Assembly (NCBI GenBank): GCA_001804285.1 | Contig: MHFR01000048.1 | Coordinates: 43,622 to 107,621, forward strand | DNA: 64,000 nucleotides | Direction: 5' to 3' | From: Candidatus Danuiimicrobium aquiferis | GTDB taxonomy: Bacteria > Omnitrophota > Omnitrophia > Omnitrophales > Danuiimicrobiaceae | Shown: positions 18,402 through 50,635 of the stretch, one piece after another | Numbering within the stretch: the stretch's first letter is position 1 | Layout of the letters: each line of letters opens with the position of its first letter | The notes under the pieces: generated by a model | Databases searched by the model: none | The model's input: the letters and a program-made list of their open reading frames with translations, nothing else | What the model was told of the DNA's origin: nothing | Translations under genes and position numbers: made by a program

Positions 18402-18595
18402 GAAAATAGCCCCTTTTTAATAGGATTAACAGTTTAAAAATTACGCTTTTAATGATGGTATCTATATGAAAACCAGGCCTTTATGGCCCGCATATATTAA
18501 TGATGAATGCTTTGCGATGCAAGCGAAAAGCCACACCGGGCATATGTTTTTCCGTGACGGGCGGATAAGCTAAGATTATAATAACAAAAATTTTT

Positions 18596-18702
18596 GTATC
18601 TGTTTAGCGTTCTGAAGTTGACTTTCCTCCCTCACCCCTGCCCTCTCCCTCGGGGAGAGGGCAGGGGTGAGGGGGATTTGTTAATCTCTTCAAAATTTTA
18701 GA
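18596..18702. mobile_element. MITE: TIR framework (GTATCTGTTTAGCGTTCTGAAGTTGAC ... CTCTTCAAAATTTTAG) with palindromic core CCCTCACCCCTGCCCTCTCCC-TCGG-GGAGAGGGCAGGGGTGAGGGGG
   Basis: Near-perfect 25-bp palindrome arms. Related copies at 2998, 19803, 27246, 29117 and 50636. Confidence 0.7.
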
Positions 18703-18739
18703 TGTATTTCCTATTTTTAAATTGAAGGAAAATGAATAG

Positions 18740-18949
18740 GTGAATATGAGCGCGACGAATTTAATAGCGGGAATTATCTTTGGGGGAATAGGATTTGTCG
18801 CTTTTATTTATGGAAAAAAGCAAGCCAGTTGGAAACCGCTTGCGATCGGCATCGCTTTAATGGCCTATCCTTATTTTGTTTCCAATACCATTGCGCTTTA
18901 CGCGATCGGAGGGCTTCTCACCCTTTCGTTATTCTTTTTTCATGATTAA
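18740..18949 (+). CDS. small two-TM membrane protein (69 aa), hypothetical
   Basis: Two hydrophobic helices (LIAGIIFGGIGFVAFIY; NTIALYAIGGLLTLSLFFF). Flanked on both sides by MITEs. GTG at 18740 or ATG at 18746. Confidence 0.35.
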   Translation: MNMSATNLIAGIIFGGIGFVAFIYGKKQASWKPLAIGIALMAYPYFVSNTIALYAIGGLLTLSLFFFHD

Positions 18950-19001
18950 ATTCTACTTGAAAAGAATGCCCGGCTCTGGGAAACTTAACCTTTCATTCTG
19001 T

Positions 19002-19156
19002 GTCTATTTAGCGTTTTGAAGTGGTGAACACGCCAGTTCGTGTCATGCCCGCATGCTTTAAGCGGGCATCCATAGTTGCTGGATTCCCGCTTTCGCGGGA
19101 ATGACAAAAAAGCGGACGACCTTTTATAGATAATCACTTCAAAGCGCTAAACAAAT
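19002..19156. mobile_element. composite MITE: TIRs TCTATTTAGCGTTTTGAAGTG ... CACTTCAAAGCGCTAAACAAATA with double-hairpin core (19042-19106)
   Basis: Core GTCATGCCCGCATGCTTTAAGCGGGCATCC...GGATTCCCGCTTTCGCGGGAATGACA. Confidence 0.7.
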
Positions 19157-19191
19157 ACTTCATTCTTAAATCGTCTCGGGAATAAGGATAT

Positions 19192-19785
19192 ATGGCAAAC
19201 AATAAACTGGTTTTAGATCTTGAAACGCAGAGGACGTTTGATGAAGTGGGGCGGGAAAACCTTCACAAGCTAAAGGTTTCGGTTGTCGGTGTGTATGATT
19301 ACGGGACGGATCGCTATCAAATTTATGGGGAATCCGAAATTCCCGAACTTGAAAAACGGATGCAGGCGGCGGAGCTGATCATCGGGTTTAATATTAAACG
19401 GTTTGACATGGTGGTGCTGCAACCGTATCTTTTTGCATCGGCTGAGCGATTTCCGGTGCTGGATTTAATGGAAGAAATCGAAAAAGTTCGCGGACATCGC
19501 GTGAGCCTGCAAAGCGTTGCGCAAGCGACACTTGGAGTAGGGAAAAGCGGGCATGGAATGGATGCGGTTCATTATTGGCGCGAAGGGAAAATGGAAGAAT
19601 TAAAGAAATATTGCTTAGATGATGTTAAGATTACAAAGGAAGTATACGAATACGGTTGTGCAAATCAGCGGATTTATTTTGTGTCAAACCGGGACTGGAA
19701 AAAATATGAAGTTCCGATTGCCTGGGGATCGGTTCCTGAGCCGGTAAAAGAAATAAAATCAGATTTCCCGAGCAGTTTATTTTAA
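19192..19785 (+). CDS. RNase H-like / DnaQ-like 3'-5' exonuclease domain protein
   Basis: N-terminal acidic motif LVLDLETQ. Later IGFNIKRFD and YCLDDVKITKEVYEY (Y..D motif), consistent with a DEDDy-type exonuclease fold. Weakly supported. Confidence 0.45.
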   Translation: MANNKLVLDLETQRTFDEVGRENLHKLKVSVVGVYDYGTDRYQIYGESEIPELEKRMQAAELIIGFNIKRFDMVVLQPYLFASAERFPVLDLMEEIEKVRGHRVSLQSVAQATLGVGKSGHGMDAVHYWREGKMEELKKYCLDDVKITKEVYEYGCANQRIYFVSNRDWKKYEVPIAWGSVPEPVKEIKSDFPSSLF

Positions 19786-19802
19786 TGGAAAACATGAACC
19801 AG

Positions 19803-19917
19803 CTATTTAGCGTTCTGAAGTTAGCTATTGTCCCTCACCCTAACCCTCTCCCTAAGGGAGAGGGAAAATTCAAAGCGGGGGGTGAGGGGGATTAGTTAAC
19901 CGCTTCAAAACGCTACA
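19803..19917. mobile_element. MITE, TIR framework with palindromic core (interrupted)
   Basis: TATTTAGCGTTCTGAAGTTAGC...CCCTCACCCTAACCCTCTCCCTAAGGGAGAGGG...GGGGTGAGGGGGATTAGTTAACCGCTTCAAAACGCTA. Confidence 0.7.
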
Positions 19918-19945
19918 TGAACTGTTCCCAACTCTATAAAAAAAT

Positions 19946-21629: not shown

Positions 21630-21639
21630 TTAAAAAAAA

Positions 21640-21750
21640 TGACCAATGGCCAAGCACGCAATGACCAAGAAAGTTTCCAATGTTTCAAATCCACATTGGA
21701 ATTTAATTTTTTAGGATTTATTTGCGGCATTGGTGTTTGGCCATTGAGAC
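21640..21750. repeat. MITE-like repeat (family F; TTGGAATTTAATTTTTTMGGATTTATTTG core)
   Basis: Shares ~50 bp with 49601-49709. Inverted ends TGACCAATGGCCAAGC / GTTTGGCCATTGAGAC. Confidence 0.5.
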
Positions 21751-27202: not shown

Positions 27203-27245
27203 AGATTTTAGCACTTTGTTCAACAAATTCGTACCGACTTCCATT

Positions 27246-27320
27246 CCCCTCACCCTAACCCTCTCCCGCGGGGAGCGGGCAGGAGTGAGGGGGATCTGTT
27301 GATCACTTCAAAATCAGAAA
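27246..27320. repeat. half MITE (palindromic core + right TIR CACTTCAAAATCAG)
   Basis: CCCTCACCCTAACCCTCTCCCGCGGGGAGCGGGCAGGAGTGAGGGGGATCTGTTGATCACTTCAAAA. Confidence 0.6.
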
Positions 27321-27433
27321 TGATTACATTCATATTTCGACTGATAAAACAGAAACTTAACTTTTTAACCGCTTAGATCTCGCAAACTATTTAATTGCAA
27401 CAAGTTAGAGTAATTAAAAAGTTTAACTTAGCC

Positions 27434-27653: not shown

Positions 27654-30600
27654 ATGCATTTTGGGATTAAACAAAAAAACAAATCATTTAATCTAAGCGT
27701 AAAACGAGCCACTCTCTCTATTTTTTCATCCCGTTTTCTTCGTTCAATTGCCCTTGTTGTGTTGATTTGTTTTGTGACGACGAATATCACATGGGCAGAT
27801 GTGAGCGTTGGCGCATCGATCACCACCCTTCAAAATGAAATCCAATCGCTTGCCCTCAAGCCCTTTGCGATTCCCCGGGAAGCCGGACGGATCGAAGAAT
27901 TGTTTCTTCCTGACGGAATGTCCCCGGAAACACCGCTGATCGTCTATTTGCAGGATGCTCATACCAACTTGGGCGCGCAAGAGAATATCCAAAAAATTGT
28001 GCAGGAATTAGCGCCGAAACTCAAAATTGACACGGTCCTTGTCGAAGGCGGTACGGGCGAAATCGATTTGTCGGAATTGAAATCCTATCCGGATGAAAAA
28101 ATTAAAACCAACGTTACGCAGTTCTGGATGAAAGAAGCGGTTCTGAACGGAATCGAGCGCGCTGCGATATTAAGCAAAGCCAATTTCCGCCTCATTGGAA
28201 TTGAAGACAAGAATCTTTATGAAGAAGCCGGAAAGCACTTTGTAACGGCCAAGCAGGAATCGCAGGCATTTCTTGCCGAACTTGAGCCACGCTTGAAATT
28301 GATCAACGAAAAACGGAAAGCAAAATTCAATCAAGATTTGATGGTGTTCGATGATTTGACAAATATGTTCGAAAAGAAGCAGGAGCTCATGCCTCTTGTG
28401 AGCGTGATTGCCAATGAAGCCAGGAACCGCCATCTTGACCGCTGGAAATACGCGCAAGTTGAGAAGTTTATCAGTTTGATGCTGTTTGAAATTCGCGGTG
28501 GCAATCAGCAGCAACTTCTCAGAGCGAAAAAAGATTTAGACGCAAAACAATTTTTCAAAGAGCTTGAAGCTTTAAAACAAGAAGTCAAAGAATCGCTGTT
28601 TCAGAATGACGAAGAACGCGCGATTGACGCAGAGGCGCAGGGACTAAAGTTATTGCGCGATTTGGTGTCGCTCGAAGCCACGCCGGAGCAATATCAAAAT
28701 TTTCTGAAGGACCGCGAAAAGATTGAAAGATTGATTGAAAATAATTTTGGAATTCTGTCATCCCCGCATGCAGTAGGCGGGGATCCATGGATTCCCGCTT
28801 CCGCGGGAATGACAAAACCTCAAACGAATTCATCACTCGCCCTTGAATCCGCCATCGAATTTTACGAATCCGCAATTAAACGCGACGACATCTTATTTCA
28901 AAACCTGCAGGCGGCTCTATCAAAGCAATCTTCCAAACACATTTTTCTCGTCACCGGCGGATTTCATACGCCCGGCATTGTTGAAAAGTTGAAAAGCGCG
29001 AAGCTTTCGTACGTGCTCATTTCGCCGCAAGTGAGCGAAGAAGACAACGCCAGGCAATATTTAGAACGTGTCGCTGGCAAGCGCGCCGATTTGGAGGAAT
29101 TTAAATCAAAATACGGCCCTCACCCTAACCCTCTCCCTGAGGGAGAGGGCAGTCCAAATTTCTACAGGCAGTCCTCGCAGCGAAGCGGAGAGGGGAAGTT
29201 TAAGGGGACGGGTGAGGGGGAAACGTATGCCGTGCCCTCGGTCAGCCGGGCTGAAGTTGGAATCATCCGCGAATCCTTTGATTGGGCGGCAGAGCGATCT
29301 GGGGAGATCGACAATAGTCACTGGTCACCAGTCAATAGTGCCCCTTTTTCTACGAATGTCATCCCCGCAAAAGCGGGGATCCAGCGGGATTCCCGCCTCC
29401 GCGGGAATGACACAATATTCCGCTCCGAAGCGCGAAGTACGCAGAATCATGATCAGTACGATACCCCGGCCTATAGTCTTAATTCCGGTTTTGATTCAGA
29501 TGATACTGATGAAATTCAACGAATTTTGAGCGAGTTTCGCCGCATTTCCGGCATTTCTCGGAAAACGGTCCAACAATTTGCGAAGGAAGCTATTCAATCT
29601 GCAGGCAGCAAAGAGTTGCGGAGACTTCGCTTTGAATCAACGCCTCGCGAAAGATCAATATATTACTGGACTCTTTTGATTCTTGGCTGCATCACCGTCG
29701 GTTTAGGTGCCGCTTCAGCAGGTTGGGCGTGGTCCGCGGCCATCTTGCGGGATATGGGACAGAAGGATCATGTTTCATTTTGGACATCCGTTATTCCCAT
29801 GGCGATTGGGCTTGGGATTTTCATTGTCGGAGTCATTGTTTTAATTGCGCTTAACAGACCGTACCCGCTTAATGAAAAAAGTGTCTATGAACTCGCGTTG
29901 CGGTTTAAGTATCTTGATGGCGAAACATTTCGAAAACCATCCGATTCGGCAAACCTTCTCGCCCGTTCCGAAGTGCGTGGCGAAAGTGAAGCAAAAAAAC
30001 CGATTATTGATGTTCGCCGCCTTGAAGATCAGCACCATCGGCGATTTCAGGAACTCGTCGGGCTGTATCAAAAAATAAAACCCCAATCTGTAGCGGCTGA
30101 GATCAGGCTGTTTATTTTTGGCGCGATTTCTTTCATCAGTATGATAGTCGGTTTTTTTATGATGAGTAGTATCGAAAACCCCCGAGACCTTGTCACAATG
30201 ATAATGCCGTCTATCGCCATATCTCTTACGGCGCTTATGCCCACCATTTATTTTATGTGGAAAGCTAAAAAATTGGGGACACTTTTAAATAACATTCTGG
30301 GCAATTTCAGCGGCATGGAACTGACGAAAGAGGAACGCTCACAAAAACCGAAAAAATTAGAGCAGTTTTCTTTGAGATGGGGCGAGCGGTTTGATTTCGA
30401 GAGAAAACGGGGCAAACAATATCAGACGCCCAAATTGATTGAAGGCGGGCGGATGTTTGAAGAGGAAGGAGAATTTTTTTCATTGGATCAGAGGACGATC
30501 AATGATTTGGGTGTCGAATCGCTTTTGGAAAAACAGGATAGGACAAAGACAGGATTCGGACAGTCGCGGCTCGAATGGCTCATTAAACATCCGCTTCTAA

Positions 30601-33600
30601 CGCCGGGAAAAATCCGGGAACGGCAGGCGTCTATCGGTGAATTTATCCAAAATGAATCATTCCGGAAGATTATGGAAGAAAAATTTACACAATTGGGAGA
30701 AAAAATTCGAGACCGTGCCTTTTGGAGTTTTGACGTGCCGGATTTTCGCTACCGGCCGAATAAATGGATGGCGCTCGGGTTGACATTATGCAAATTTCTG
30801 CTGATTCCGGCGGGTATTTTATTGGCCGGCTATTCGTGGAAAATGCTTCCCGTTCCCTTTGTTTTGTTTTTAATGATTCGCAGCGCGTATCTGAATGAAA
30901 AAGTCATTCGAAGAGAATGGAAGGCGGTCGGAAAGTTTATCAATGAAATATTACCCGAACTTCGGCAAGCCGAATCGCCGTTACTTCAGAAAATTTACTC
31001 CGTGCTAAAGGATGCCGTCGATCCGCATGGCTCGGCCGGCATCGCTTCTTTTATCAACCGTCCCGGCATGTTGAATGGCGCGTGGGCGTATTTAAACAAA
31101 AGAAAAGAGTTACAGAGTGTCCTCGGCGCGATTGGCGAGCTTGAGAGCTTGTATTCCCAAGGGCAGGCGGCCGTTGACAATTTGGGATATCATGATTTTC
31201 CCGAAATATTGGATCGTGATACTTCCGTTTCTGGGCCAGAACAAGGCCGGCCGGTATTAAAGTTTGAAACGGAAAAATTGCATCATCCGGCCATTCCGTT
31301 TGAGAAATCCGTCGGAAATCCGGTCCGGTTCGCTTCGGATCATTCCTTTATGATTTTAACCGGCGCGAACATGGGCGGAAAATCGACCTTTCTCAAAACA
31401 TTGGCGCTTGCGATCATTCTCGCGCAAACGGGCGGGCCGATCCGCGGGTTCAACATGAAACTGACACCGGTCAAACTCATGACGCTTTTTGATGTCAGAG
31501 ATGACATTGCGGCAGGAAAGTCCAAATATGACGCACAGACAGACCGGCTCAAAGAAATGACTGATTTAGCGGCGTCAGATCCGAGAGTGATGTTATTTTT
31601 TGATGAAATGTTAAACGGAACCAACCCGGAAGATCATCTTGTGATCGAAGAAGGCACGATCCTCTACTTGGTGAAGCTCGGGATTTTCGGCATGTTAGCC
31701 ACGCATGATTTGGAAGTGACGGAACTCGAAACAGTCGAAAAGCAACCCGGCGTTTTCAATATGCATTTTGACGAAAAATTGGATGCCGACAGGAAGCCGC
31801 AAGCGGATTATGAGTTAAGCCAGGGACCCGTTGAAGGTTCAAACGCGATTTCCATTCTTGAAAGAAAAGGATATCCTCCGGAAATTATTGACGAAGCCAA
31901 ACGCCGCGCTCTGGTGAGACTGGAGAAAAAAGCAAAAGGGCAAGCACGGGCCGAAGTGCGCCACCTTGAAAATAGTGGCAAGGCGATTATTAATCGAGGC
32001 GCACGAGAGTCCTCGATACTTTCCAAGGGGCTTGTATCGAGGGCCGAAGTTCGTAACCTTGAGAATACAGAAGTCAGAAGTCAGAAGTCAGATATGTCAT
32101 TCCCGCAGGCTTCTGGCGGGAATCTGCGTTTGCTCGCCAGAGGCGAATTTGTCTTTGGCAGAGATTCCCGACAACAGATTTCGGGAATGACACCAGAATA
32201 TCGTTCCGAAGCCCGTGCGGATTCGGATTCCGACACGCCGGCTTATGTGTTGGATCCCGGTTTCGATCCAGAACAATATCCAGACGAAGTTCATACAATT
32301 CAACGAGCATTAACTAAAATTCGCCAAATCACAAACAAAAGCCAGGCAGAAGTTCAAACGGAAGCGAATAAACATATTCGCTTTAGCAATAATTATCCAT
32401 ACGCGCTATTGTGGCATAGCGAACCGGGATTATTTAACTTTGCCAGGGCAAAATGGAAATTTTTTCTGCTTGCCGGATTATGCCTCGCTTGTTTGCCATC
32501 TGCTGTGGCAATGTTTATATATTGGATTGCTCGACCTTTCAGTACCATACAGGAAGGAAGTGAATTTCATCACTCAAAATTCATTTTGTATTTTGGGCTT
32601 TTTCTTACTTTTGCGGGATATTATTTTTTACAAACATTTTTTGCTGCGCTGCCCGTGACGGAAGCGAATGTTTTCGCCATTTTTCGCGGAATCGATTTCA
32701 TCACGAAAGATGAATATCGGGATTTGACGTTAACTCTAAAGTCGTCGAACCCTTCTGCTGAAACTAGGGCTGAAGCGCGCGCGGAACCTGATTATGACAC
32801 GCCGGGATATAATTTAAGGCCGGGATTCGATGGCGACCAAATCAATACGCTTCAAGGCGCGTTAACCACAGTTCGGAAAGTAACGAAAAAGAGCAAGGAC
32901 GAAGTTCAGCGGGCCGCGAACAAATATCTCTGGCCATATCGCTTCCGTTTTTTCTCTTACTATGATGAAACGGGATTGTTCGACATCGCTCGTTTTAGAA
33001 ATCCGCCGGGAAAGATTCCCAATTATCTGCGTGCCTTTTTGAGTCCATCCGGACTTTTTTCCTTATTAGCCGCTTTGATTTTTGCGCTTGTTTTTGCCAT
33101 TCCTGTTGCTTTAGCGCAACGCTCTTTTATGAGAATGGTCCATGATGTCATGACAACGCTTACTTTCCCGCTCGGAATACAAATAGATGACGCGGCCGAA
33201 AGATTGCCTGCCTATACGCGCATGATTACCAATCCCTATTGGTGGGGAATTGTCTTTTTTATGGCCAATATATGGGCGGCAGCAACAGTGCTGAAATTGT
33301 TACGGGTCACGGAAGCGAACATTTATACCATTTTGTACCGTGTCGGATTCCTCACGAAAGACGAATATGAAGATTTGCTGAAAACTCTGGAATCGTCGCA
33401 ACCTCTTGGTCAAGAAACGCTTTCCGGGTCACGTTCTGCGGACAAACGGAAAATCGGGAGAAGGTCGCCCATTGAAGCGGCTTCCAATTATCTTTTGATG
33501 GGATTCGCCGAAGCGCGGCATCTTGCGCGCCTCCACCAACAAGCCATGCGCCTATCCGCTGCCGGGAGATATGTGCCCGCAAGAAACTTGCGTTTAAAAA

Positions 33601-36600
33601 CGATGATTTGGCGGGGAATTGTTATTAAGGGCGGAAAATGGATTGATATTTTTCAGTTGGTCAAAGAGTTCATGCGGGGATGGTTCGATATTTTTGATCT
33701 GCCCAAGAAGTTAATTAATCAACAAAGCATTCAGTTTCTTTCCTATGAATATTTAGGCGAAAGATATCATCGAGAAATGTTTCTTGATAGCGAAGAAGGA
33801 AATGCTCTCTACGGATTATTGGATGAAATGAAAAATGATCCGAAACGGTTTCCGGGAATTGATTGGTCGAAACATTCGGCCATTTATGGACATTGGGAAG
33901 TGTCGAGTTACCGGTATGAACGTTCCGAAGTTCGTAACCTTGCGCCGGAAAAGGGGACAGGCATATCCCTCAAAAGCGAACGATTGCCTGTCCCCTTTTC
34001 TGTTTTGACTTATGCTCCTGTGCTCTCGGCGGCGAAGTCCGCCGCCCGTTCCGAAACCCGCGCAGGAGCGGAAAAAGATCCGATCGGGCTGAGGAAAATA
34101 GAACAGATTGCCAGGGGATATAAAGATATCAGACGTTCGCGGCGAATGATTTATCCGAACATTATTCTTGATCGATGGCAATTGCCACCCGCTTTTGAAC
34201 CATACCAGGACGCCGTTCTCAACAGAAGAGCTCCCGAGTTTGAGGCGGGGATGGGCGTTGCTTTGATTGTGCCAGGTGAAGATATTAAAGCGGCGCTTCG
34301 AAAGAAGAAAGAACCAGAGGAACGGGTACAAGCGTTAATACGCCTCATCGAAACGATGGTAATTAAGGGGATCATGAAAGCGTGGCACGCGCGTGTTTTG
34401 AAATTCGGGTTAAAAGATGAAAAAAATCAATGGTCCGAAAAAGCGTTAAACAAGCCAGAAATCTTGCAAGTCGTGTTACAGGAATTGAGCGGTGAAAAAC
34501 TGGAAATTCTGAAACAATGCGTTGATATTTGGTTCAAGCGAATTCGAGAAGGACCGGAAGGGCGGTTGGGTAGCGGCTTGGTGTTGATTCAGAAAGACGC
34601 AGAACTTCTTTATGATTACCTCCGCAACGTTCATGCGCCTCATCAAAATTTGACGGGCTATCACAATATCGCAGGAAGCATTGTCGAATCTATTTTTCGG
34701 GGTGATATAGCGGCTAAAGTTCATTCTCTGGATGAATATGTTAAACAGTCCTGGGCGATGGAATTAACGGACGCGCTGCATACGTTAGAAACGCCAGCCA
34801 ATGCTTCGATTGCGGAAGCGGCCGTTGAACGAGTGACTCAAATTGCAGAACAATCGAAGAACAACCGGATCATCACGCTCGCCGGAAGTTTGGAAGATGC
34901 TTTAGCAGATGAAGAGCGGAAAAACAAATTGATTGCCAGAATCAAAACCATTTTGATAGATGAAAAATTAAAAGTGCTGGACTTTGCATTTTCCCGCCTG
35001 GAAGAAGCTGAAAAGCGCTTGCATGAAATGGAAGAATTCCAGCGTGAGCATCGGCACATGTTCACTATGCAAACCGACTATTATGCATTTGCGGATATTG
35101 CGGAAGGATATACGCGGCGCGTTGAAGAAATGTTCGGCCAAACGCCTAAGGATTATTCCGGACGCCGCATGAAGATGTTGATGAAAAATTTTGAAGAGAT
35201 GGAATTCCGGAACTTGGGAAGAAGCCAGCGTCAGGGTGGGGGACTACCTTTTACGACAGGTCTTCAGGTTGCAAAATTGTTGTGGGCGAGAGAGCGAAAG
35301 CCCGTTCGTGTATTGCGGGCTTTTAATCGCCTGATCAATAAGCAAGAATTGTTGGAAGCCGTAAAAGGTGTGAAAACCAGATCGAATGGTACCGCGAGGC
35401 CAGAAGAAGCAAAATCGCCGAAAGCGTATGTCGAGTTTCTGGGAGAGCACCGGATGAGTGCGATTGCTTTAGAGCTGGTGTATTACGGAATCGGAGAGGT
35501 GGCGCAGCAGCTCAGAGAAGATCTCGGGACCCACGCACAGGATGTCCTTGCTTATTTGAATAAAATGGAAATGCCTGCATTTCAGGGTGAGGGGGAATGG
35601 AAGGAAAAGTTGCATAAGCAAACAGCTGCCATTTTGAAGGCGTTGCGAGACATCGAGGGCATATTTGAAAAAGATGATGCAGAAAAAGATATATCTAAAA
35701 AACTATCGATTAACAAACGGGCTTCGATTGTATTCGAGCACGCGGCCAGGCTTCACCAAGAAATGGATCCAAGCTGGTTTCCGAATGATCGCACGATTGA
35801 TTTACTTCTACTTTACTGGACGAATACGTTTAAGGTGGGCGGAGCGGACCGTATTCACGAAGCGCTCGGCTCTATTTTGGAAAACGATTTATTCTATGAT
35901 TTCGAAGACGGAAAACGGAAACAAAAATCACCGGATGAAATTCTCAAGTTACTTGACACAAACCGCGCCCTTTCCCAATTGGCAACATTTGAGAGGAGGC
36001 AGCTTAAAAGCGTGCTATTTGAATTGGGCTTGATTAATCCCGAAGACGTGTATCCCGCCATGTTTAAATATGTGATGGAAAAAATCGGAACTGCAAAACC
36101 GCGCATGGTTGTTTTTTACGACCGGCATCTTCCGCTTGAAAACTCTTCCCCCATTATTGAAAGGATCGTCAAATCCGGGAAATATTCTTCCGATGATATT
36201 ATTTTTGTTCCATGGCCGGAATATACGACACCGCTTGGAGAGACGGTTGCTATTGCTGACGGGCTGATGGACTTGATGCGGCAAATGGCAAATCCGGAAC
36301 GGGGCAAACAGGTGCTTCCGGTTAAAAAATATTCGGTACGAGATCAACAATGGTTTGGAGAATTTGTGATCCGGGAAATTGCCGGAAAAATTTTCGAGCC
36401 GGAGGAACAAACAGCCCTTTTTCAGCAACAACAAAGGATCGGGACGAAATCATGGGGAGATATCGGGCCAATGCTCAAGAGTAGGCTGGGGAGTTTAGTC
36501 ATGAAGCCGTTATTGGCGGAAGCGGAAAAAAGAATCAAAGCAATTCATAGACCTGCGACTCAAGAAACGGGGGAAGGGGACGAGGAGACTCGAAGGTATG

Positions 36601-39600
36601 AGAGAGCTCTTTGGGATCGGTCTGGCGCTGTGACGAGGGAGACGAAACGGTTGATCGAAAAATTTTATGGTATGTTAAATGACGTGATGAACCGGATCGA
36701 TATCGGGAAACAGGCGGGCATTGAAGATGTTGAATTTCCGCCGAGCGAAGAACAATTCATTTATGCGCTGTTCCTCTATATGATGAAAAAAAGTTATCCG
36801 GACATGTTGTTTGTTTCTGTTCACCGTGATGTCATAATCAAAAAATCCGAAGATATTCAGTGGACGCTCGAAGAACTCCAGCAAGGTTTCCGATTGGTTA
36901 CGACCGACAAGGCAAAAGAAATTCATCAAGGACTCGAAATTCCGCAATTGTCGTGGAGAAAAAGATCACGGCAGGCGCATATTCATTTGGCGGTGGAGCA
37001 ACTTGTTTCTGCCAGGCGTGTCAATGCAGAAGTTCCTATTGTTTTTGTTGAGCTCAAACAGGATGCGCAAAAAATAGAATCAGTGCCGCAAGAAACATTG
37101 GCAAAGGCAATTTTGGGTTTATATGCTTTGAGCCTGTCGAATTTTGCTTCCTATTTTACTATTAGAGATGTTGTCCCTTCCCGAAGTGGTGTTTTGGGTG
37201 ACCCATATCGGATAGCGGATTATTTGTTAAGACCGGAGCCGGAAACAGAGGCGCAAATTGAACAAGGGGCAAAGGCTCTTGGGGAAAATTATTTCGATCG
37301 TGTTCTAACAAAAATGAAAGGGCAAGCCCGGGCCGAAGCGCGGAGTGATTTGAAGAGGCGGTCATTTGCCGAGGTTTTGTGGAATTATTTGTGGATGCCG
37401 AAGGAGGCCATTCAACTTGCAAAGTTGCATGCTGAAGCAAGAAAACTGGCACATGCGGGAAAATTTGATCAAGCCCGGGAACTTCGGATCAAGATATTTA
37501 TTTGGAGAGAAGTTGTTCTCGAAAAAGATCGTTGGTTAGGACCGGATCAATTTCGTGAAGCGATGTTTGGAGATTCTTCAATCGATTCTTTATTCATGAA
37601 TTTTGTTCAACATAAAATGCATCATGATGCGCCGACCCACTCAGATCAGATTGAAACGGTTGTCGATTTACTTTGGGAGGTTGAAAGCGATCACGTACAT
37701 TTTCCGGGATTCAGGGTGATTGTAGATGTCCGGAAAGGCCCGCAGGGGGTTGCGTGCCGTTATGATGAAAAGAAGCGATCAGAAGCGAGAAACGGAGAAG
37801 TCGCGAAGGAAATCCCTGAGGAGTTGGATTTTTACATTAAAGAGTTTTTATCGATTTTGCCGGAAAATAAACGTCCGAATATTAAAAAATTCAAAGCCGC
37901 AAATCAAGTGATCCGGACGAACTTGAACGATCCGGTACGTATTAAATATAAATTGCCGGTTACCATTGTTTTTAGACCCGAGTTTTTTATCCGCGGATTG
38001 CCGCCCGATTTACAACCCCGGGGGATGCCGTGGCAATTGGTATATACCAATCACGATTTGGCGGATGAGGCTTTTGAGTCTTTATTGGTTATCCACGGGA
38101 ATAAGGAAATTGAGGAGGTCAATCTTTCACAGGGCCCTGTGGATTATTTCATTTCTTCAAGCGAAAAGGCTTACCGGCATAAACGCCGGTCGATTTTGAG
38201 TTTTACACCGCTTGAAGGAAGAACCATGGATGACGTAAACCAGGGCACCAGTTATTTAGACGGTGCGTTTTCGGCGATTGTTGCAAAACCAATCAAAAGC
38301 AAAGGGGAATTAACAGAAAAACAACTTCAGAAAAAAACAGATGAACAGAAAAGAAAAATCATTGAGTTGTGGACGAAGTCGCTGGTAAATATTGGGATTT
38401 TGGGACAGGTATACATTGCGTCAACCGGAAACTTGATGCAGGCGGAAGAAATGGATTTGATTATCCAGTATGCATATGACATGGAATCTCTCGAGGAAGC
38501 AGAACAGAGACAGATGGCGCGTGGACAGCCATCCGGGGCAGTGGATTATCAGCCGGTATTTGGCCGAAGAGATTTACCTCCCGCGGTCGGAGTTTCCGAT
38601 GTAAATTTAGGAATTCCAAAGAAGAAATGGAAAATTCAAGGAATTGGCCCCGTGAATGCGATTCTTGCGCTGATCAAACATCCTGTGATTCAAAAAAAAT
38701 ATTTCGGGGGACAAGAACCGCCGCAAGTCAATGTCGGATTCTTTGGCTTTGGTCGTGTGGCCGCTCAAATGGCGAGTGTGGTGATATACGATTATGCGAA
38801 TATAACCCCCATTCAATTTAGCGGAATTATTGATGAAGCCCGGCAAATTTATTCGAAATGGGGAGAACTTCCCGTGCCCGTTCTTCAGGAATTGATTCGA
38901 CGGGTGAATCAGCGAGCAGATAGTCCGTTGCAAAAGTTGGCGCGCAGATTCCGGCGTTATGGTGTGCGAGAGCTTTCCAGCAATTCGGTACAACAAAAAG
39001 TATTGTCGGAAAATATTGATGTGCTTGTGCTTGCTTCGCCGCCGCAAACATTTGGAGAGAAAGAGGCCGAACGTTTTGAGGGGAAAATAGTTATCGAAGC
39101 CAACCAAAATGTGGCGACGAAAAAAGCCATTCAGATATTGAATCAACGAGGGATTAAATTTGTACCTTATTCGACGGTCAATATCGGAGAATCCTACGCT
39201 GCGCGCCATGAATTTGCGAATCCCTTTATGAAAGCCCCACGTTACGATAAAGAGTTTTATGTACTTAACGGAATCGTCGGGCATACATTCGCCAATATTT
39301 GGATGGGACTCGAATCGTTTGAGAAAAACCGTCTAAATCAGTGGAAAACGCTGATTCTATGGATTGTATCAGCTGCGCTGATTGGAACTGCCAGCGGATG
39401 GCTGGGAGGAATCCTTTTATCGATTCCCTTGATTGGAATTTCTGTCGGTTTTTCCCTTGGAACGATTGCTGGACTGATTGCGGCTTATATATTCGAGCCG
39501 CAAGCCGCGAAATCCATGGTTCAAACCGTGGGTGAACTCAATGAACGGATGAATCGTGAAATCGATGCGCTTGTTGTCGAAATGTATCACTTAACGCCGG

Positions 39601-42600
39601 AACTACATGATTTCAAACAAGACGAACAGAATAAAACCCAGTTGAGGGCTATTTGCAATAGACTTTTATCGAGGATTAAAGAGAAGAAATTAAGCGCGGA
39701 GCAAAAGAGGCAGTATTATCGCATTTTGGGGAAGATATACTTGCTAATGAGCCAAAAGGGAAGAAATGAGACTTATATGCCTTATGTTGTGGCATTAAAA
39801 ATTGCTGTGTTTCAGGAAGTTAATGCCGTGATTATCTCAAAAAGTTACGATTTAAAAAAATTGAAAGAACATCTTCGGTATCCCCAAAAATCAGATGCGA
39901 TTCAAAAACGAGTTGCGGCATTCGTAATCGGACAAGCGCGGCATGAGCCGAAGGATATTCCCGAAATCGTTGAGGCGTTGGGGGATCAGCTGATTAAAAG
40001 CGATGATTATCATGTCAGAGCAGAATGCGCGAAAGCTCTTGGATTAATCCGGCATTCAAAGGGGAAATCTTATTTGTTCATGTCGTTTTTTAGCACGAAG
40101 GAAACAGATTCAAGCGTGAAGGAATGGGTGGAATGGGCACTTGCCAGATATAATGTTAATTGGGAAGCGAATGCCGAGGCATATTATGAGAAAGAGCTTT
40201 TACCGATCCAGAGAAGAATTGAACAATTTGAAAGAATAACGGATTTGCGGAAAAGCACCCAACCCCGGCCGGCTTTTTGGGAACAAATCAAAGAAGGGCT
40301 GCAGTCTTTTCAGTCTTTATATAGAAAAGCCGGGCAGACTTATTTTGAATATGCACAAATGAAGCGGATGGAAGGGGATGATGAAACGGCTCTTAAACAT
40401 TATAAAGAAGCGATCAATTTGCTCGGCAAAGCGGGGTGGGAGGGCAATGCATTTCCATTTATTGTTCAACAGGAAATCGCTGAAATCTATTGGACGTTAA
40501 ATCAACCGGCGAAAATGCGTGAAGCACTTTTAAAGATGATTTTACCCGGCGCAGCATTTGAATTGGTCAAAGGCAAGGAGATAAAAGAGCAACGAAACAT
40601 TCAAGATTTCTTGATGCCGATTGAAATATACCAGCGATTGGCGTTTGAGCGGTTTTTCATCTGGAATGGATTTAAACCGGAAACGGCAGAAGTGATGGCG
40701 GCCGCGCTGAATCATTATATTGAGAGGAAATATAATGAACTCATACACGATTTTGGTTATGTCGGCAAAATGGACGAAGTCGATGCCAGGGAGCAACTGA
40801 TTCGAAAAGATATTGAAATTCTTGAAGAAATTAATAAAAAAATTATCCCAAAACTTTACATCGAAGATGAAAAAGCAGGAAAAATTCCATTTCTCAAATT
40901 AATGATTCTGGTGACAACCAATATGTATTATCAGCGCTTTCCCAAACTCATGCAATGGATTGTTCAAACTTTGAGCGAAGAAAAAATTCCACCGGAAATT
41001 CAAAAGCCGACCAATCCGGAAGCAAAATTCCTTCAGGATCTTTTTGTGGAAATTGGGCTTATCCAGGGTTCGAACGAGGGGGCGGCCGGCGGACGTAGCG
41101 AAATCCGTTCAAAAGGGGAAGAGTATCTTAATAGGCATGCGTTGATCAATGAATTTGGGACATTCAAAAGAGCGAATTTAGAAAAAGAATTTATGCCATT
41201 CCTGAATCAGCTGAAGTCGCAAGACTCCGTGCTGATTGAACGTGGATTCGAGAACATCAAACAACATTTAAATGCGGAGCTTAAACGGGCGAAGCAGCTT
41301 AGCAGACAGGATGAAGCGAAACGAGTGCGTTCGTTTGTGGCCGGAAGACTCGTTGCGATGATCCCGAGAATGAAGGAAAGATACATTCCGAATGTAGTCG
41401 AACTCTATGAAATACTTTTAGGGTCGATGACTTATTCCGTTTCCAGGTATCTTGGGTCGGGCGTCGCGCGTGACCCGGAAACGCAGATCCGTATCCGTCT
41501 TTTAAAGATTCTGCAGAAAGGCTCTGAAACCGGCACGCGGCCAAATATTGCAATCAGTATTCTTAAAAGTGAAACATTCGCAGGCAGTCGCGGTTTATTA
41601 AAGACTGAACCGGAAAAAGAATATTTGAAAATTGTTGATCAAACTATTTTAAAACGGATCGCGAAGGCATTCCGCGCGGGAGATGCGAGGCAACGTTTGT
41701 CGCTACTTCAGGACCTGCTCGAAGGAGTGCGCGCGTCGAAAGGTTTCGCAATCGAAGTTTCAAATCAGTCTTTATCCTCGCTTTTGGTCGGGGTTCTTGG
41801 CCGTTTCCGTTTTTCAGTTGAGGAATCAATCATCATGAATGAAATTAAAAAGACCGTGGAAAACCAGGCAGCTTCTCCGCTCATCCGGCAAGTTCGTAGG
41901 GCGATGGTTTTCGGGATGCTCAATCCGCCTGTCTATCAAAATCTTGACGATATATATTTTTATGATTCCGACCGGGCCATCTATCACGCGGCTATTCTTT
42001 TGGAGCATGGATTGATTCCGTTGATTCATTTGCCTGTTTTTGCATCGGGCATACAAGACAAAAATGATTTGCATAAAGAGCAGAAATATTCCGAACAAAT
42101 TTTTTCCGGGATTAAACGGCTAAGAAAAGAAAATCCAAAAGCGCTTTTGGCGGTGGGTGGAATTAAAAATTTTCAAGCCGCAATGAGAGCTGTCGAAAAC
42201 GGAGTGAATGTATTATTTGTTTCAAAATCACTGTCTTCGAGGCAGATTAAAAAATTAAAGTGGTATGCGGAAAAAATTCATCCGGAAAATCCGGATATTT
42301 TGGTCCTTTCAGGTGTTGAACGGGGTAAGAAAATGACACGGGGGCTAAATCGGCAAACAGGCGGCGGATTTCTGGCGCTCGATAAGCCTGAGGAAGCTGC
42401 GGTAAACGAAGATGAGATTCAGCGGCTGAAAAGGCTTCAAGAAAAACGCCCGCAAAATGTCTTCGGTTTTTATTGGTTGTTTTTAAACCGAGCGGTTGAA
42501 GAAGCTATGAAAACACCGGCCGATTTTATAGTGGTAGATGCGGAATTTTCTTTAGGGACTCAAGCCGAGATCACTGCGCAATGGCTCGAAAATTTGAAGA

Positions 42601-45600
42601 ATGAAACGATCCAACAGAGAATACGCCAGCGCCGACTGGATAAAAGAACGGTTTCTGGAAAACCGGAAGGACGGGCCGAGGTTCGTAACCTTGAAAGTAA
42701 TTCCAATCGGTTATCAACAGGGACGAACGAAAGTACTTTTAAACTTCCGAAGAGAAGTTTAAAACGTGCCGAAGCTCGGTCCCCGATAGCTGATTTGGCG
42801 AAAAAAGGTCAAGTAGCGAACATGTTTTCCGAGGAAGATCCGTCTGTGGTTTATTTGGCGGCGAAAAAAATGAAAGATGCGGCGGGAACCGTTCTTGCCC
42901 ACCGGATGAGTGCGATCGATAAAGACTTGGTTGGGCCAGTTTTTGGATTGGTGATCGAAACGGATGAGGGGCAATCCTTTCTGATTCAACGGTTGGCTGA
43001 AGGAACTTTTGACGAGAACATTCAAACCAGAGAATGGATTGCGGTTCATACGGTTCAGGAAACCCGCGCCGGACCGGAAACAGACGATCAAAGTTGGACG
43101 ATTATTTCAGAGCAGCCTCAGTATCTTACCACACCGGAAGCCATTCAAAATATCCGCTTAGGCGAACATGTTCAAATTGCTTATCAGCAAAAAACAGAAA
43201 AAAATCAGGCAGCAATTATTTTAACCGCACCCAATTCAACAGATCGCCGGAAACTAACCATTTATTCAGTTGAGATTCTTCCGGAAGGAATTCAAGCGGT
43301 AGACTCGACGGCTGATGACGCGGAGGCTATAGATCCTTATTTATATGATTTTCAAGATCAAGAACCGGGGAGCGCTGTTGTAGAAGAGAGAGCGCCGAAG
43401 CGAACGGTTCCTGATTTTTCTGATACCTTAGCGCCAAAAGCCAAAAAGGCGCCTCGTTCTTTTGCTTCGGCTAAGAAAAGAATTTTCCGCGCGTTGAAAC
43501 GAATTCCGTTTTTATTCTTTGTTTTTCTGATTGGCGGAAGCGTTGTCCTTTCTTATTTTTATATTCACAGCCTTGAAACAGAAACGATGCGAGGCGTTAC
43601 ATATCAGCATCTTCCTTTTGTTGCAAGCCAGATTGAATGGAAAGATTTAACTCGCGAAAGATATTTATCCAATAATCCGAATTCAACGGTAGATGATGTG
43701 TTGACGTCCGAACTTGCCGAGCCCATACGAATGCTTGCCCAATATAATCAGCAACGGTGGCTTCAGATTTACCGGATTGAAATTGCGAATGCAAAAGTTC
43801 CCGTATCTCAGCCGGCGCAAACCGGAAACAATTTTCGTGTCGGGGCAACTCCTGTTTCCAACGAAACAAAACCAGCCCTTCAAATCGGTGTTTTTCATGA
43901 CCGGACATTGGGGGAACCCAACCCGCCATTTCCGCAGGAAACGATTGTCTCCCTTGATCCGTTAGATCGTAAAGCACTGCATCAGTTTAAAGTGGCGGTG
44001 TATGGGAAGCCGGCCGCGCAATACAACTTGGATTTTGCTCGTCAGCAAAAAGATGCCATTACCTATTGGACATATTTTTATTTATTTGCCGGTGTCATTA
44101 TTTTTGCCGCGGGATTGGTCAGTGAATTTGTATTCCGCAAAAGCCGAATTATCAGGCGTGAAAATATTCGCGCGGACCGACGAGAGAGAAACGCACGCGA
44201 ATTCCGGCAAGCCGAAGGTCATTCGGGGCGAACAGAAGGCGGTGAACGAGGAAGGGCCGAAGTGCGTGCCGCGAAAAACGTTTTTAGATTAAAGGTAGTT
44301 GTGGTCCCGGGGCTTAGCCGGTACCGTGAAATTGAAGGCCATCAGGTTTTTACAAAGCCTTTGGCGGATATGACGGATGAGATGAGGCGGAAACTCAACG
44401 AATGGTTTAAGCCGTTTATGGGAGAAGGCTTTTATCAATTTGTGACAACAACCGGAATGCCGGATTTTATATTTTTGACGAAAGTACAAATTGTGTCGGG
44501 AAATGTGATCAAGCAAACGTTGGAAGATGAGTCCGGCGCCGAGCCGGCGGAGGCTGACCAAAGCTATCAACTCATCACGTTTATTCCGCTAACACCTTTT
44601 GCTGTCCAGCAAACCGGTTTATTTAAAACATTGGTTCGCGAATATATGAAACAAGCCAATATAAAAGAGCCTATTTATTTTTTACGGAGCCATGTTTATC
44701 GGACAACCACTCCTGAAGTGAATATAGAACAAAAGGAAGAATCAAGAGAAATTACCATTACGCGTTCAGGGCATTCAAGCCTTGTGATTGAAGAAATGGG
44801 GCGTGCCGAAGGTCGCAACCTTGCACCGGAAAAGGGAACAGGCATATTACTCAAAAGAGAACAATTGCCTGTCCCCTTTTCCGGTAAATCCGAGCTGCGC
44901 CACATTGAAAATAGTTCCGAGTTTTCAGTTCCGAGTTTCAGGTTAGGACGAATGGATCAACTCGAAACTCAATTCAGGGCCGAAGCCCGTAACGAAATTG
45001 CTGCGGAACTCAATCCGGGATTGGAAGCAGTTTTTATCCGGGCGCCGAAGAACGTGCTGGCAGGTATTGTAAAAGAGCTTTATCCAACCGATGATGCACG
45101 CCGGACCGGATTCCTGAATTTAATCCAAAATCCGGAAGCGGATCACGATCGCTGGCTCCCCGTAGGCCATCGATTACTTCTCGGCTGGTGGAGAGAAGCG
45201 CCTTATGCGGGGACGATGGTTTTGACATTTGATTTGCGAAAATTAAATGCCGCGCAAATTCGGGAATTCAAGCGTAAACGCGAAGGAAAGCACGCACTTG
45301 AAGGTGATTTCTGGCTTTACATTAATCGGGTTATCAGACGGATAACTGGCCAATCGATTGAGTTAGGCGGGGTTGAATCTGACGATAAGACGCTTTCTCC
45401 TGAAGAATTGCTTTTGCGATTGAAAATTCTTGAGCCAACCTGGACTTCCGGGAATATTGACGCACTGATTCACGTCGGAAATTTTTTCCGGGCAAAAGGA
45501 GATTTGGGACGTGCAGAGTTTTTTCTCAGAAAAGCAGCGGAGCTTCTTCCGGAAAACGAAGATTCGTTTTGGCGGGATCAACAGGCGAAAAAAATAATTA

Positions 45601-50614: not shown

Positions 50615-50635
50615 GAGTTGAATGACAAATCAAAT

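Follow-up and report, generated by a model that had tools for sequence, protein, structure and literature searches.

Small palindromic repeats have most likely been copied into a giant gene of Omnitrophota, where the copies that kept the reading frame, carried no stop codon, and fell into loops or linkers survived (probability about 0.8). The gene is an open reading frame on the plus strand (27654-49532, 7,292 aa) of the window, the whole 64-kb stretch of DNA that we analysed. An earlier note had placed five elements inside this frame without stop or frameshift; the frame was open throughout, and all five elements were present on the same strand within one base of the positions given: three head-to-head hairpin dimers (A1, A2, and A3), one palindrome (B), and one short element (G). 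A terminator-like hairpin has two further in-frame copies (C1 and C2) downstream. The elements are DNA-level copies that form stable hairpins, are read in more than one phase, and are present in some homologs and absent from others. The note was inconsistent about how many kinds of element there are, counting three families in its title and four kinds in its text.

The product of the giant gene begins with a transmembrane helix and an EreA/ChaN/TraB-like domain (aa ~75-487), continues with MutS III/V-like, ELFV-dehydrogenase-like, HEAT, and TPR modules, and closes with a C-terminal domain ending in ..GTAA. It is one of a family of very long modular proteins in Omnitrophota, in which the N-terminal helix and EreA/ChaN/TraB-like domain are followed by variable cargo modules and a conserved C-terminal domain, with poorly conserved linkers between modules. 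The relatives have the same N-terminal domain, quite different cargo, and frames that stay open for 2,400-3,900 codons or more, lower bounds because the ORFs extend past the edges of the fetched loci. No strict ortholog was found in any collection searched (best N-terminal identity, 48-50%), and the six closest homologs used for site comparison (44-50% identity) are relatives rather than strict orthologs. As a separate observation, the motif R-[AS]-E-x-R delimits the modules that come after the N-terminal domain (17 occurrences observed against 0.3 expected), and its fourth residue is lineage-specific. This module-border motif is more novel than the in-frame palindromic repeats.

The family A elements consist of dRS3/NTS-like (CGTC-type REP) hairpins. 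A1 (28757-28813; GTCATCCCCGC..GCGGGAATGAC) is translated as SSPHAVGGDPWIPASAGMT (aa 368-388) within a loop of the N-terminal domain, where it approximately replaces the ancestral loop instead of simply being added to it. An AF2 model has pLDDT below 50 exactly at residues 367-390, and the element peptide is predicted to be a disordered loop. A2 (29358-29411) is translated as VIPAKAGIQRDSRLRGND (aa 569-587), in a phase unlike that of A1 and A3, and ends 3 aa before an RSEAR motif (aa 590). A3 is a long dimer with a 36-nt internal hairpin; it was reported at 32097-32192 and lies one base earlier, at 32096-32191. It is read as SFPQASGGN...DSRQQISGMT (aa 1482-1513) in a 54-aa spacer running from RAEVR (1463) to RSEAR (1517), and immediately 5' of it is a heptanucleotide tandem repeat (GAAGTCA x3.3, 32070-32092) read as EVRSQKSD. 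Folded in the mRNA sense, A1, A2, and A3 gave -33.2 (z -4.1), -36.7 (z -5.8), and -49 kcal/mol (z -5.05), respectively.

Element B (29117-29221) is a TMECO-like G/C-rich palindrome (CCCTCACCCTAACCCTCTCCC..GGGAGAGGG..GGGTGAGGGGG) with an internal insert of ~55 nt. It is translated as PHPNPLPEGEG...GTGEGE (aa 488-523) directly after the N-terminal domain and folds at -52 kcal/mol (z -3.75). The short GTCACTGG element G (29317-29334; GTCACTGGTCACCAGTCA) is translated as SHWSPV and is related to an intergenic inverted repeat at 55762-55824 (4 matches against 0.02 expected). The strong RNA hairpins expected of the five elements were recovered for A1, B, A2, and A3, from -33.2 to -52 kcal/mol; G, with a weak hairpin (-6.6 kcal/mol, z -1.4), was the exception. 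The "two more repeats downstream" of the earlier note proved to be an 80-nt unit at 33921-34000 (C1) and 44802-44881 (C2), 89% identical and in the same phase, which joins an RSEVR-coding segment to a terminator-like hairpin (GGAAAAGGGGACAGGCA-N21-TGCCTGTCCCCTTTTC). The units are translated as RSEVRNLAPEKGTGISLKSERLPVPFS and RAEGRNLAPEKGTGILLKREQLPVPFS and fold at -36.2 (z -7.5) and -36.4 kcal/mol (z -8.2). Their stem is that of an intergenic bidirectional terminator-like hairpin (16190-16245; -37.7 kcal/mol, z -10.6), with the U-run reduced to U4. B, G, A2, A3, C1, and C2 all lie in unconserved linkers, and an R-x-E-x-R motif is at most 5 aa away for four of the six: A2, A3, C1, and C2 are 3-4 aa from the motif, the last three within short spacers that have it at both ends.

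The same families also occur between genes in the window, as had been stated, in copies 92-100% identical to those in the giant gene over 18-36 nt (E down to 5e-9). Family A copies were found at 7259-7337, 10550-10613, 19042-19105, and 51330-51565, the last within a cluster of A-type hairpins (51329-51569); those of family B are at 18629, 19832, 27247, and 50669. An outer inverted-repeat shell, TTTAGCGTTTTGAAGT, encloses both A and B in intergenic DNA (9 matches against 1.4 expected) and is lacking from the genic copies. It surrounds A dimers at 10507-10650 (TTTACCGTTTTGAAGT / ACTTCAAAATGCTAAA) and 19000-19155 (97% identical to A1 over 30 nt) and B palindromes at 18595-18704 and 19798-19920 (97% identical to genic B over 33 nt), while 50635-50715 has the left shell and B (91-96% identical to E. 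coli intergenic repeats) and 27244-27322, ~330 nt 5' of the giant ORF, has B and the right arm. The families had been called unrelated, which does not fully hold for A and B, given their common shell between genes. Within genes, the window has just one further case, the extended C-terminal tail of mutY (2998-3157, minus strand): its reading frame takes in a B palindrome (2998-3030) as well as a GTCATCCCCGC half-hairpin (about 3143-3157) and gives ..HMSSPRP..PLTLSLRERVRE... Element density was 2.12 per kb in intergenic DNA, 0.32 per kb in the giant gene, and 0.06 per kb in other genes (giant gene versus other genes, binomial p = 0.018). Neither the window nor 91 related loci showed a transposase, RAYT, or GIY-YIG gene.

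That the repeats are duplicative DNA and not protein repeats, as had been proposed, is borne out by empty homolog sites, two reading phases, near-consensus nucleotides, covariation, and strong hairpins. A1 and A3 read xxG TCA TYC CCG (SSP.., SFP..), and A2 reads GTC ATC CCC GCA (VIPAKAGIQ). Among 25 hairpins from eight sources (the window and seven loci), one stem pair was T-A in 14, C-G in 9, and G-C in 2, and another was C-G in 18 and A-T in 6. The four orientable genic dimers (two in the window, one each in loci L082 and L085; A3 cannot be oriented and was left out) all point the same way relative to the sense strand.

The ortholog check that had been suggested was carried out on the 44-50% identical relatives, and the A1, B, and A2/G sites were each empty in some. 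The A1 site was empty in L081, L084, and L085 and filled in the window, L082, and L001; the B site was empty in L081, L082, L085, and L001 and filled in the window and L084; the A2/G stretch was absent from L001. An empty site may equal a precise loss, since no strict ortholog was available. The filled states were not monophyletic on an NJ tree, which indicates repeated gain or loss, and the filling of the same two sites in non-sister lineages hints at targeting or function over random insertion and filtering. Window A1 and the copy at the same site in L082 share 83% of their nucleotides, compared with 60% in the coding flanks. The reverse case was also seen, with B-type elements in L001 at places that lack an element in the window. 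Among homologs, the same site is held by different element families, and other REP types are in frame elsewhere in family members L039, L050, L062, L029, L044, and L085 and, in a further case, at another site in the comparison of P0010 with P0006.

The genome is rich in small, structure-dependent REP-like palindromic repeats (~2 per kb of intergenic DNA), among them the dRS3/NTS-type head-to-head dimers, the TMECO-type G/C-rich palindrome, and two further kinds, one resembling a terminator hairpin and one built on a heptamer. We propose that copies also inserted into the giant gene, and that those surviving are the ones that kept the frame, introduced no stop, and reached a loop or linker tolerating 6-36 extra residues. 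Spread may involve a hairpin-recognising ssDNA mechanism, as in REP/RAYT or NTS/Ssn. Counting against this reading are the uniform polarity of the four orientable dimers, the nearness of four of six elements to the R-x-E-x-R motif, the replacement of an ancestral loop by A1, the filling of the same sites in non-sister lineages, and the lack of a transposase, RAYT, or GIY-YIG gene among the loci covered. The earlier note had offered a choice between strong selection on the frame and elements evolved for read-through; the former probably explains the in-frame state. Two to four of six frames are stop-free in intergenic copies, so purifying selection suffices and adaptation of the elements is unneeded.

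A less likely reading, which we nevertheless place ahead of the remaining alternatives, is that the hairpins were recruited for a function at the module borders of the 22-kb message and have been kept by selection instead of just being tolerated. They might protect upstream mRNA in the manner of REPs, serve RNase processing, attenuate transcription, pause translation for co-translational folding or for membrane insertion, or act as in-frame recombination joints for module shuffling; recombination between C1 and C2 would keep the frame, as they have the same phase. The proximity of A2, A3, C1, and C2 to the border motif, the very stable folds (-33 to -52 kcal/mol), the shortened U-run of C1/C2 beside an intergenic terminator stem, the non-sister lineages filled at the same sites, the covarying stems, and the common sense-strand polarity fit such a function, as does a spacer at 31960-32042 that folds better than shuffled sequence (z -3.2). 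However, other linkers fold unexceptionally (z -1.3, -0.02, and -0.07), most homologs lack elements at the same borders, one site can hold different families, and identical elements are far denser between genes. Stem covariation would be just as much expected if the hairpin were needed for propagation alone, and the samples are tiny (four dimers, six homologs). It is improbable that the linkers are instead fossil intergenic spacers, left when neighbouring genes fused by stop-codon loss and carried their resident REPs and terminators along. The elements are typically intergenic, the C hairpin equals an intergenic terminator, the modules resemble stand-alone enzymes (MutS-like, Glu/Leu dehydrogenase-like), and cargo differs widely in the family; yet A1 is within a conserved domain, not between modules, and homologs with the same domain-to-linker junction are empty at the B and A2 sites. 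C1 and C2 are 89% identical including the RSEVR-coding segment and are thus duplicates, not two independent old terminators, and the genic copies are near consensus, hence young relative to the 44-50% protein divergence.

We give very little weight to an assembly artefact, in which chimeric joins at dispersed repeats would have produced a continuous 21.9-kb ORF that is not real. Repeats of 30-100 nt do occur at several positions of the contig, which apparently comes from an uncultured Omnitrophota genome, but frame and homology run unbroken across A1, B, and A2 against five independent relatives, 7,292 stop-free codons at ~45% G+C would be impossible by chance, and the relatives too have long open frames behind a common N-terminal domain. 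Least credible of all is that the segments are ancestral or convergent low-complexity linker peptides resembling intergenic repeats by coincidence. Similar peptides (SSP..GDP, LDSRLRGND, PHPxPLP..GEG) do recur among homologous giant proteins, but presence varies among those homologs, compensatory changes in palindromes have no meaning at the protein level, and E. coli intergenic DNA matches B at 91-96% identity. Ancestral protein sequence is effectively refuted by one DNA giving different peptides in two phases and by the 92-100% nucleotide identity of untranslated copies.

Palindromic repeats inside genes have precedents. By sequence, family A appears to be dRS3/NTS, of the CGTC-type REP class that includes Rickettsia RPE-6. 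The two have the ATTCCC-N8-GGGAAT palindrome in common (PMC3733652, PMC11893778), and two intergenic copies (hairpin 10549-10576 and, on the minus strand, the copy in 19000-19155) match the 28-nt Neisseria NTS consensus at 27/28 positions (PMC11893778). Like CGTC-tagged REPs, family A occurs mostly as head-to-head dimers; PMC3733652 catalogues intragenic dimers encoding 20-30 aa, often in DNA-repair genes, and the carriers in the window are mutY and the MutS-like giant protein. In contrast to the known class, the 5' tag is TGTC in every window copy, the intergenic dimers are nested in an additional shell, and the 64-kb window showed no ssnA (GIY-YIG) or RAYT gene. Omnitrophota are not among the phyla named for these repeats in the available portions of PMC3733652 and PMC11893778.

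Family B appears to be the E. coli triplex motif TMECO (PMC4666352), with which it has the CCCTCTCCC-loop-GGGAGAGGG-NNN-GGGTGAGGG architecture in common. Sites 91-96% identical over 46-55 nt occur in 4,388 of 5,426 complete E. coli genomes, without overlap of an annotated feature among the five matches listed. TMECO in E. coli K-12 is "always located intergenically" (PMC4666352), whereas family B has two translated copies, one each in the giant ORF and the tail of mutY, and its window copies have an extra CCCTCACCC arm that makes a full palindrome. Family C is a dispersed hairpin like terminator-like mobile repeats such as SPRITE of S. pneumoniae (PMC10969869) and, like an intrinsic terminator, has a G/C-rich stem between A- and T-runs. 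Unlike those repeats, two of its three window copies are intragenic with a shorter T-run, and these three copies are the only sign of mobility.

The host protein resembles Archaeovorins and related proteins of Omnitrophota (bioRxiv 10.1101/2023.11.21.568195, 10.64898/2026.06.07.730766), which are also very long and membrane-associated and tile unrelated enzyme-like domains with HEAT/TPR. It differs from Archaeovorins in lacking C39 or S8 peptidase and dockerin and in its EreA/ChaN/TraB-like N-terminus. Term searches of the two papers gave no mention of palindromes or linkers in either, nor, in the latter, of hairpins, MITEs, or inverted repeats.

A close parallel is with Rickettsia RPEs, palindromic repeats found both intergenically and in frame in functional ORFs (Ogata et al. 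2000, 2002, via PMC10969869, PMC3733652), where they encode short additional peptides at surface positions that tolerate them and differ in presence from homolog to homolog. The window elements are alike in these respects, and RPE-6 and RPE-4 are themselves CGTC-type REPs of the family A superfamily (PMC3733652). RPE-1, as described there, is set apart by its ~150 bp and conserved encoded peptide. The RPE host is an obligate intracellular alphaproteobacterium and ours a free-living or episymbiotic member of Omnitrophota, in which several element families are piled into a single gene, chiefly in the linkers between modules. The phenomenon described in the earlier note is real and is less novel than it implied, as intragenic CGTC/GTAG REP dimers and RPEs have been published (PMC3733652, PMC10969869): intragenic hairpin repeats, now seen in an Omnitrophota giant gene, had earlier been described in Rickettsia and other bacteria.

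The window contains a giant gene (27654-49532, + strand; 7,292 codons), and Pfam searches assigned its product MutS domains III and V (aa 955-1418), a Glu/Leu/Phe/Val-dehydrogenase-like region, HEAT and TPR. The earlier note had claimed five inserted segments within the first 4.5 kb of this gene, and all five were located there: a hairpin dimer, A1, GTCATCCCCGC..GCGGGAATGAC (28757-28813); a G/C-rich palindrome, B, CCCTCACCCTAACCCTCTCCC...GGGTGAGGGGG (29117-29221); a short element, G, GTCACTGGTCACCAGTCA (29317-29334); a second hairpin dimer, A2 (29358-29411); and a long third dimer, A3 (32096-32191). Further downstream an 80-nt unit occurs twice (C1, 33921-34000; C2, 44802-44881; 89% identical), and the stem of its hairpin is shared with a terminator-like hairpin in intergenic DNA (16190-16245). 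The ORF stays open and in frame through the inserted elements, as in the palindromic elements (RPEs) of Rickettsia. Every family of genic element also has copies in the non-coding DNA of the window, with A copies outside the gene at 7259-7337, 10550-10613, 19042-19105, and 51330-51565, B copies at 18629, 19832, 27247, and 50669, and relatives of G at 55762-55824. Genic and intergenic copies were 92-100% identical over 18-36 nt when the gene was compared with the window by short-word BLASTN.

These segments had been interpreted as dispersed DNA elements translated in frame rather than as protein repeats. The observation itself is confirmed, and the insertion reading is supported by codon phase, stem covariation, empty sites in relatives, and the predicted fold around A1, four lines of evidence that together argue that the elements are insertions and not protein sequence. 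A1 and A3 are read in the phase xxG TCA TYC CCG (..SSPH.. and ..SFPQ..), while A2 is read as GTC ATC CCC GCA (VIPAKAGIQ). Among 25 true hairpins from eight sources (the window and seven related loci), both variable stem positions were always complementary, with no mispairs (T-A 14, C-G 9, and G-C 2 at one position; C-G 18 and A-T 6 at the other). A profile search of the N-terminal domain of the giant protein against PDB sequences gave no significant match, and only fold comparison was informative. In the AlphaFold2 model of aa 1-487 (mean pLDDT 76.7), confidence drops internally only in the coil at residues 367-390 (pLDDT <50), which coincides exactly with the A1 peptide and lies between long helices at 354-365 and 392-424. 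The modeled position of the A1 peptide would thus be a surface loop compatible with the fold; for the other elements, lack of conservation suggests a permissive position.

A search with the first 1,700 aa against 5.8 billion proteins returned remote relatives alone, none above 36% identity over 10% of the query, and did not recover the protein itself, the GTDB species genomes held no ortholog (the best locus, L001, had 37% identity by tblastn and 41-44% in alignments), and a first metagenome scan with a single protein query found no relatives. A second scan, with a two-sequence alignment as query, identified five relatives with N-terminal domains 45-50% identical in ungapped columns. In these relatives and L001, which at 44-50% identity are not strict orthologs, the presence/absence check that had been proposed for orthologs showed the A1 and B sites to be empty in some and filled in others. 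By protein alignment and DNA, L081, L084, and L085 have no insertion at the A1 site; L082 has the same hairpin dimer there, and L001 has elements of the GTCATCCTGAG/..CGCAATGAC type. At the B site, L084 carries G/C-rich palindromes and L001, L081, L082, and L085 carry none, and the stretch with A2 and G corresponds to a 23-aa gap in L001. The reverse case also occurs: L001 bears two B-type palindromes (L001:1150-1295) at a place that has none in the window. Relative to more distant members of the family, A1 is not a pure addition but approximately takes the place of an ancestral loop of ~25 residues.

In a neighbor-joining tree L082, with its A1 site filled, groups with L081 and L085, where the site is empty, so the filled state is not monophyletic. 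This points to more than one gain, or more than one precise loss, at the same permissive places. Nucleotide identity between the window A1 and its counterpart at the same site in L082 is 83%, against 60% for the flanking coding DNA. Comparison of filled and empty sites revealed no target-site duplication, the mark of classical MITEs, which fits REP-like rather than IS-derived elements. A GAATTC pair flanking A1 was considered as such a duplication, but its members are 76 nt apart and the filled/empty comparison gave it no support; we took it as chance. Other Omnitrophota family members carry in-frame REP-type elements at other positions, such as SFPRKRES in L039 and RHPERSEGS...GPQND in L050, with more in L062, L029, L044, and L085, and a SLRGRQSRPKQS insert is present in family protein P0010 and absent from its relative P0006. 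dRS3/NTS-like dimers were also seen on related contigs upstream of a giant gene (L082:4486-4568), in intergenic DNA (L084:485-545), and inside a linker of a giant ORF (L085:7393-7450).

To account for the open frame, either strong selection or the evolution of read-through-compatible elements had been offered. Intergenic copies already have two to four of six frames free of stops (three to five of six in genic copies), so no special adaptation to read-through is needed and we rejected that alternative as unnecessary; selection to keep the reading frame is sufficient. The mechanism would then be an ordinary one: frame-breaking insertions would have been eliminated, and selection would filter REP-type elements into permissive in-frame positions. 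The outer parts of the elements agree with this expectation. Intergenic A cores and intergenic B cores alike are surrounded by an outer shell of inverted repeats, TTTAGCGTTTTGAAGT ... ACTTCAAAGCGCTAAA (nine matches vs 1.4 expected; 10507-10650, 19000-19155, 18595-18704, 19798-19920, and 50635-50715), whereas genic copies lack it. Stop codons (TAG, TGA, and TAA) occur in most frames of the shell, and selection would therefore be expected to leave it out of the ORF. Two different REP families, A and B, thus occupy the center of one common larger palindrome.

Elements are densest in intergenic DNA, at 2.12 per kb. The giant gene has 0.32 per kb and the remaining 36 kb of genic sequence 0.06 per kb, and the difference between these two has a binomial p of 0.018. 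Apart from the giant gene, the one gene in the window that contains such elements is mutY, in its C-terminal tail (2998-3157, - strand). The mutY ORF (2891-4183, - strand) extends ~80 aa past the end of the NUDIX domain, and this tail consists of a B palindrome and a GTCATCCCCGC half-hairpin, read as ..HMSSPRP..PLTLSLRERVRE...

A functional role for the elements was kept as an alternative of low probability. It would draw on the reuse of the same two sites in lineages that are not sisters, on the single sense-strand polarity shared by all four genic dimers of assignable orientation, and on the association of the elements with borders marked by R-x-E-x-R. Strong hairpins in the mRNA had been expected of all the insertions, and in the mRNA sense this held for A1 (-33.2 kcal/mol, z -4.1), B (-52, z -3.75), A2 (-36.7, z -5.8), A3 (-49, z -5.05), C1 (-36.2, z -7.5), and C2 (-36.4, z -8.2) but not for G (-6.6 kcal/mol, z -1.4). 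We found no mobilizing enzyme (transposase, RAYT, or GIY-YIG) in the window or in 91 loci, with the search for ssnA and GIY-YIG covering both by Pfam on ORFs of at least 146 aa and a GIY-YIG regular expression.

The giant ORF has 17 in-frame matches to the strict motif R-[AS]-E-[AVIT]-R (29421-48872), compared with 0.31 expected in shuffles; an 18th site, RAEGR, fits the looser R[AS]ExR, and no R-[AS]-E-x-R occurs in the remaining five frames of the 64-kb window. The sites separate modules, and related lineages have uniform versions of their own (RAETR ten times in L085, RAEVR in L081, RAELR in L082, and RxELR in L001). We considered whether the motif is itself a DNA repeat and rejected this, as its codons vary (TCC, TCA, AGC, and TCG; GCC, GCT, and GCA) despite an NCC-GAA bias. 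The varied codons, and conservation of the motif in distant relatives with other codons, point to a mainly protein-level signal, and R-[AS]-E-x-R is a candidate processing or delimiter site. Pairs of motifs enclose short spacers of 31-58 aa, which is where most REP and terminator-like elements sit, A3, C1, and C2 among them. Paired motifs bounding such spacers are the pattern expected of polyprotein processing sites, and the giant protein might be a polyprotein cut at R-[AS]-E-x-R by its N-terminal EreA/ChaN/TraB(Tiki)-like hydrolase domain or by a co-evolving protease, with the spacers discarded, in which case insertions in them would be invisible to the mature proteins. Candidate catalytic residues of that domain (aa ~75-487) are H103, E131, and H438. 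We consider the polyprotein reading unlikely. The plainer view, in which the motif simply marks disordered linkers as the sole places where insertions survive, also fits.

Several features of the giant ORF were seen alongside these elements. C1 and C2 each contain a terminator-like hairpin with a 17-18 bp stem directly after an R-x-E-x-R motif and with the T-run cut to TTTTC, unlike the intergenic hairpin at 16190-16245, which has full A- and T-runs. A terminator scan of the window gave no more sites than shuffles; it detects loops of up to 8 nt, and the longer loops of C1 and C2 escaped it. At 32070-32092, 3.3 in-frame units of the heptanucleotide GAAGTCA are read as EVRSQKSD; gain or loss of a single unit would throw the 17 kb that follow out of frame, which makes the tract a possible slipped-strand switch. 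Three paralogous modules (29421-29960, 32202-32765, and 32766-33350; aa 590-770, 1517-1705, and 1705-~1900) begin with R[AS]EAR..D.DTP[AG]Y.L..GFD and contain predicted transmembrane helices, and the second and third copies form a repeat, D5, with 70% nucleotide identity.

Elsewhere in the window, shell-plus-core elements lie on both sides of each of two genes (18595-19925), a 69-aa membrane ORF (18740-18949) and a 3'-5' exonuclease-like gene (19192-19785; RNase_H_2/PolB-exo). A repeat of 47-71 nt (77% identical direct, 72% inverted) occurs just 3' of an aminotransferase gene (21634-21732) and just 3' of the giant ORF stop (49642-49713). At the 5' end of an aminopeptidase gene, a 37-nt inverted repeat (52795-52831/52943-52979) has arms 89% complementary and 111 nt apart; the ORF as listed is ~47 aa longer than its homologs, and this neighbor is at most 59% identical to Omnitrophica proteins. 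The source is a divergent Omnitrophota lineage that the searched collections lack. A scan of the window at Rfam gathering thresholds found no family, and no tRNA or tmRNA was found.

For annotation, these results mean that peptides like VIPAKAGIQ, SFPxxxSG, and PHPNPLPEGEG in Omnitrophota giant proteins represent read-through of REP-type DNA, not protein repeats or domains. The insertions are natural markers of permissive loops and linkers and, together with the R-x-E-x-R motif, offer a way to split giant proteins into modules for structure prediction. The motif and the module context may matter more than the repeats. Full-text literature searches returned nothing relevant for the element peptides or for RSEVR-type motifs; by term search, two papers on Omnitrophota giant genes (bioRxiv 10.1101/2023.11.21.568195 and 10.64898/2026.06.07.730766) do not mention palindromes or linkers, and the 2026 paper (10.64898/2026.06.07.730766) does not mention hairpins, MITEs, or inverted repeats either.

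The A hairpin is the 20-bp dRS3 palindrome, ATTCCC-N8-GGGAAT (10553-10572, 19083-19102, 28791-28810, and 29389-29408, for example), and variants with ATCCCC.. or ATGCCC.. still pair. Compared with the 28-nt Neisseria NTS consensus, CGTCATTCCCGCGMAVGCGGGAATCYRG (PMC11893778), the intergenic copies at 10549 (+) and 19106 (-) match at 27 of 28 positions, the genic copies at 28814 (-) and 29412 (-) at 25, and that at 29357 (+) at 24. According to that report, NTS-like Ssn-related motifs are hairpin repeats cut in single-stranded DNA by the GIY-YIG nuclease SsnA and occur in several phyla; the repeat-gene-repeat layout at 18595-19925 recalls NTS-ssnA-NTS, with a different enzyme. PMC3733652 places NTS-like motifs within the CGTC-tagged REP superfamily (CGTC-1 = dRS3 = Rickettsia RPE-6) and describes these repeats as mostly head-to-head dimers, with catalogued intragenic dimers that code for 20-30 aa, often in DNA-repair genes. 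All full A copies in the window are likewise inverted hairpin pairs, and their stems are kept by compensatory substitutions, as in CGTC-tagged REPs, dRS3, and NTS, across the 25 hairpins. The tag differs, as CGTC-tagged REPs carry CGTC at one end and the window A copies all start with TGTCAT, a one-base variant.

Judged by sequence, family B corresponds to TMECO, the intrastrand-triplex motif of E. coli; it fits the consensus CCCTCKCCC-loop-GGGGAGAGGG-NNN-GGGTGAGGG (Table 1 of PMC4666352) and is 91-96% identical to E. coli sites. A 55-nt window copy (50664-50718) matches 4,388 of 5,426 complete E. coli genomes; the best matches listed have 83-96% identity, and none of those listed overlaps an annotated feature. 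This conservation across phyla, from Omnitrophota to E. coli, is striking. In E. coli K-12 the location of TMECO is reported to be always intergenic (PMC4666352), unlike here, where one B copy lies within the giant ORF (29117-29221) and another within the tail of mutY (2998-3030). Both dRS3/NTS and TMECO, described in Proteobacteria, are thus nearly unchanged in Omnitrophota (27 of 28 positions and 91-96% identity, respectively). Accounts of how they spread, through Ssn/RAYT-like enzymes or by horizontal transfer, must cover this wider host range. The likeness to Rickettsia RPEs, which are defined by palindromic repeats lying in frame within genes (PMC10969869), is one of behavior (elements in frame in an open ORF, non-coding copies, presence or absence in homologs). 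The phenomenon is therefore already known from Rickettsia and the novelty is modest; what is new is the phylum and the type of host gene.
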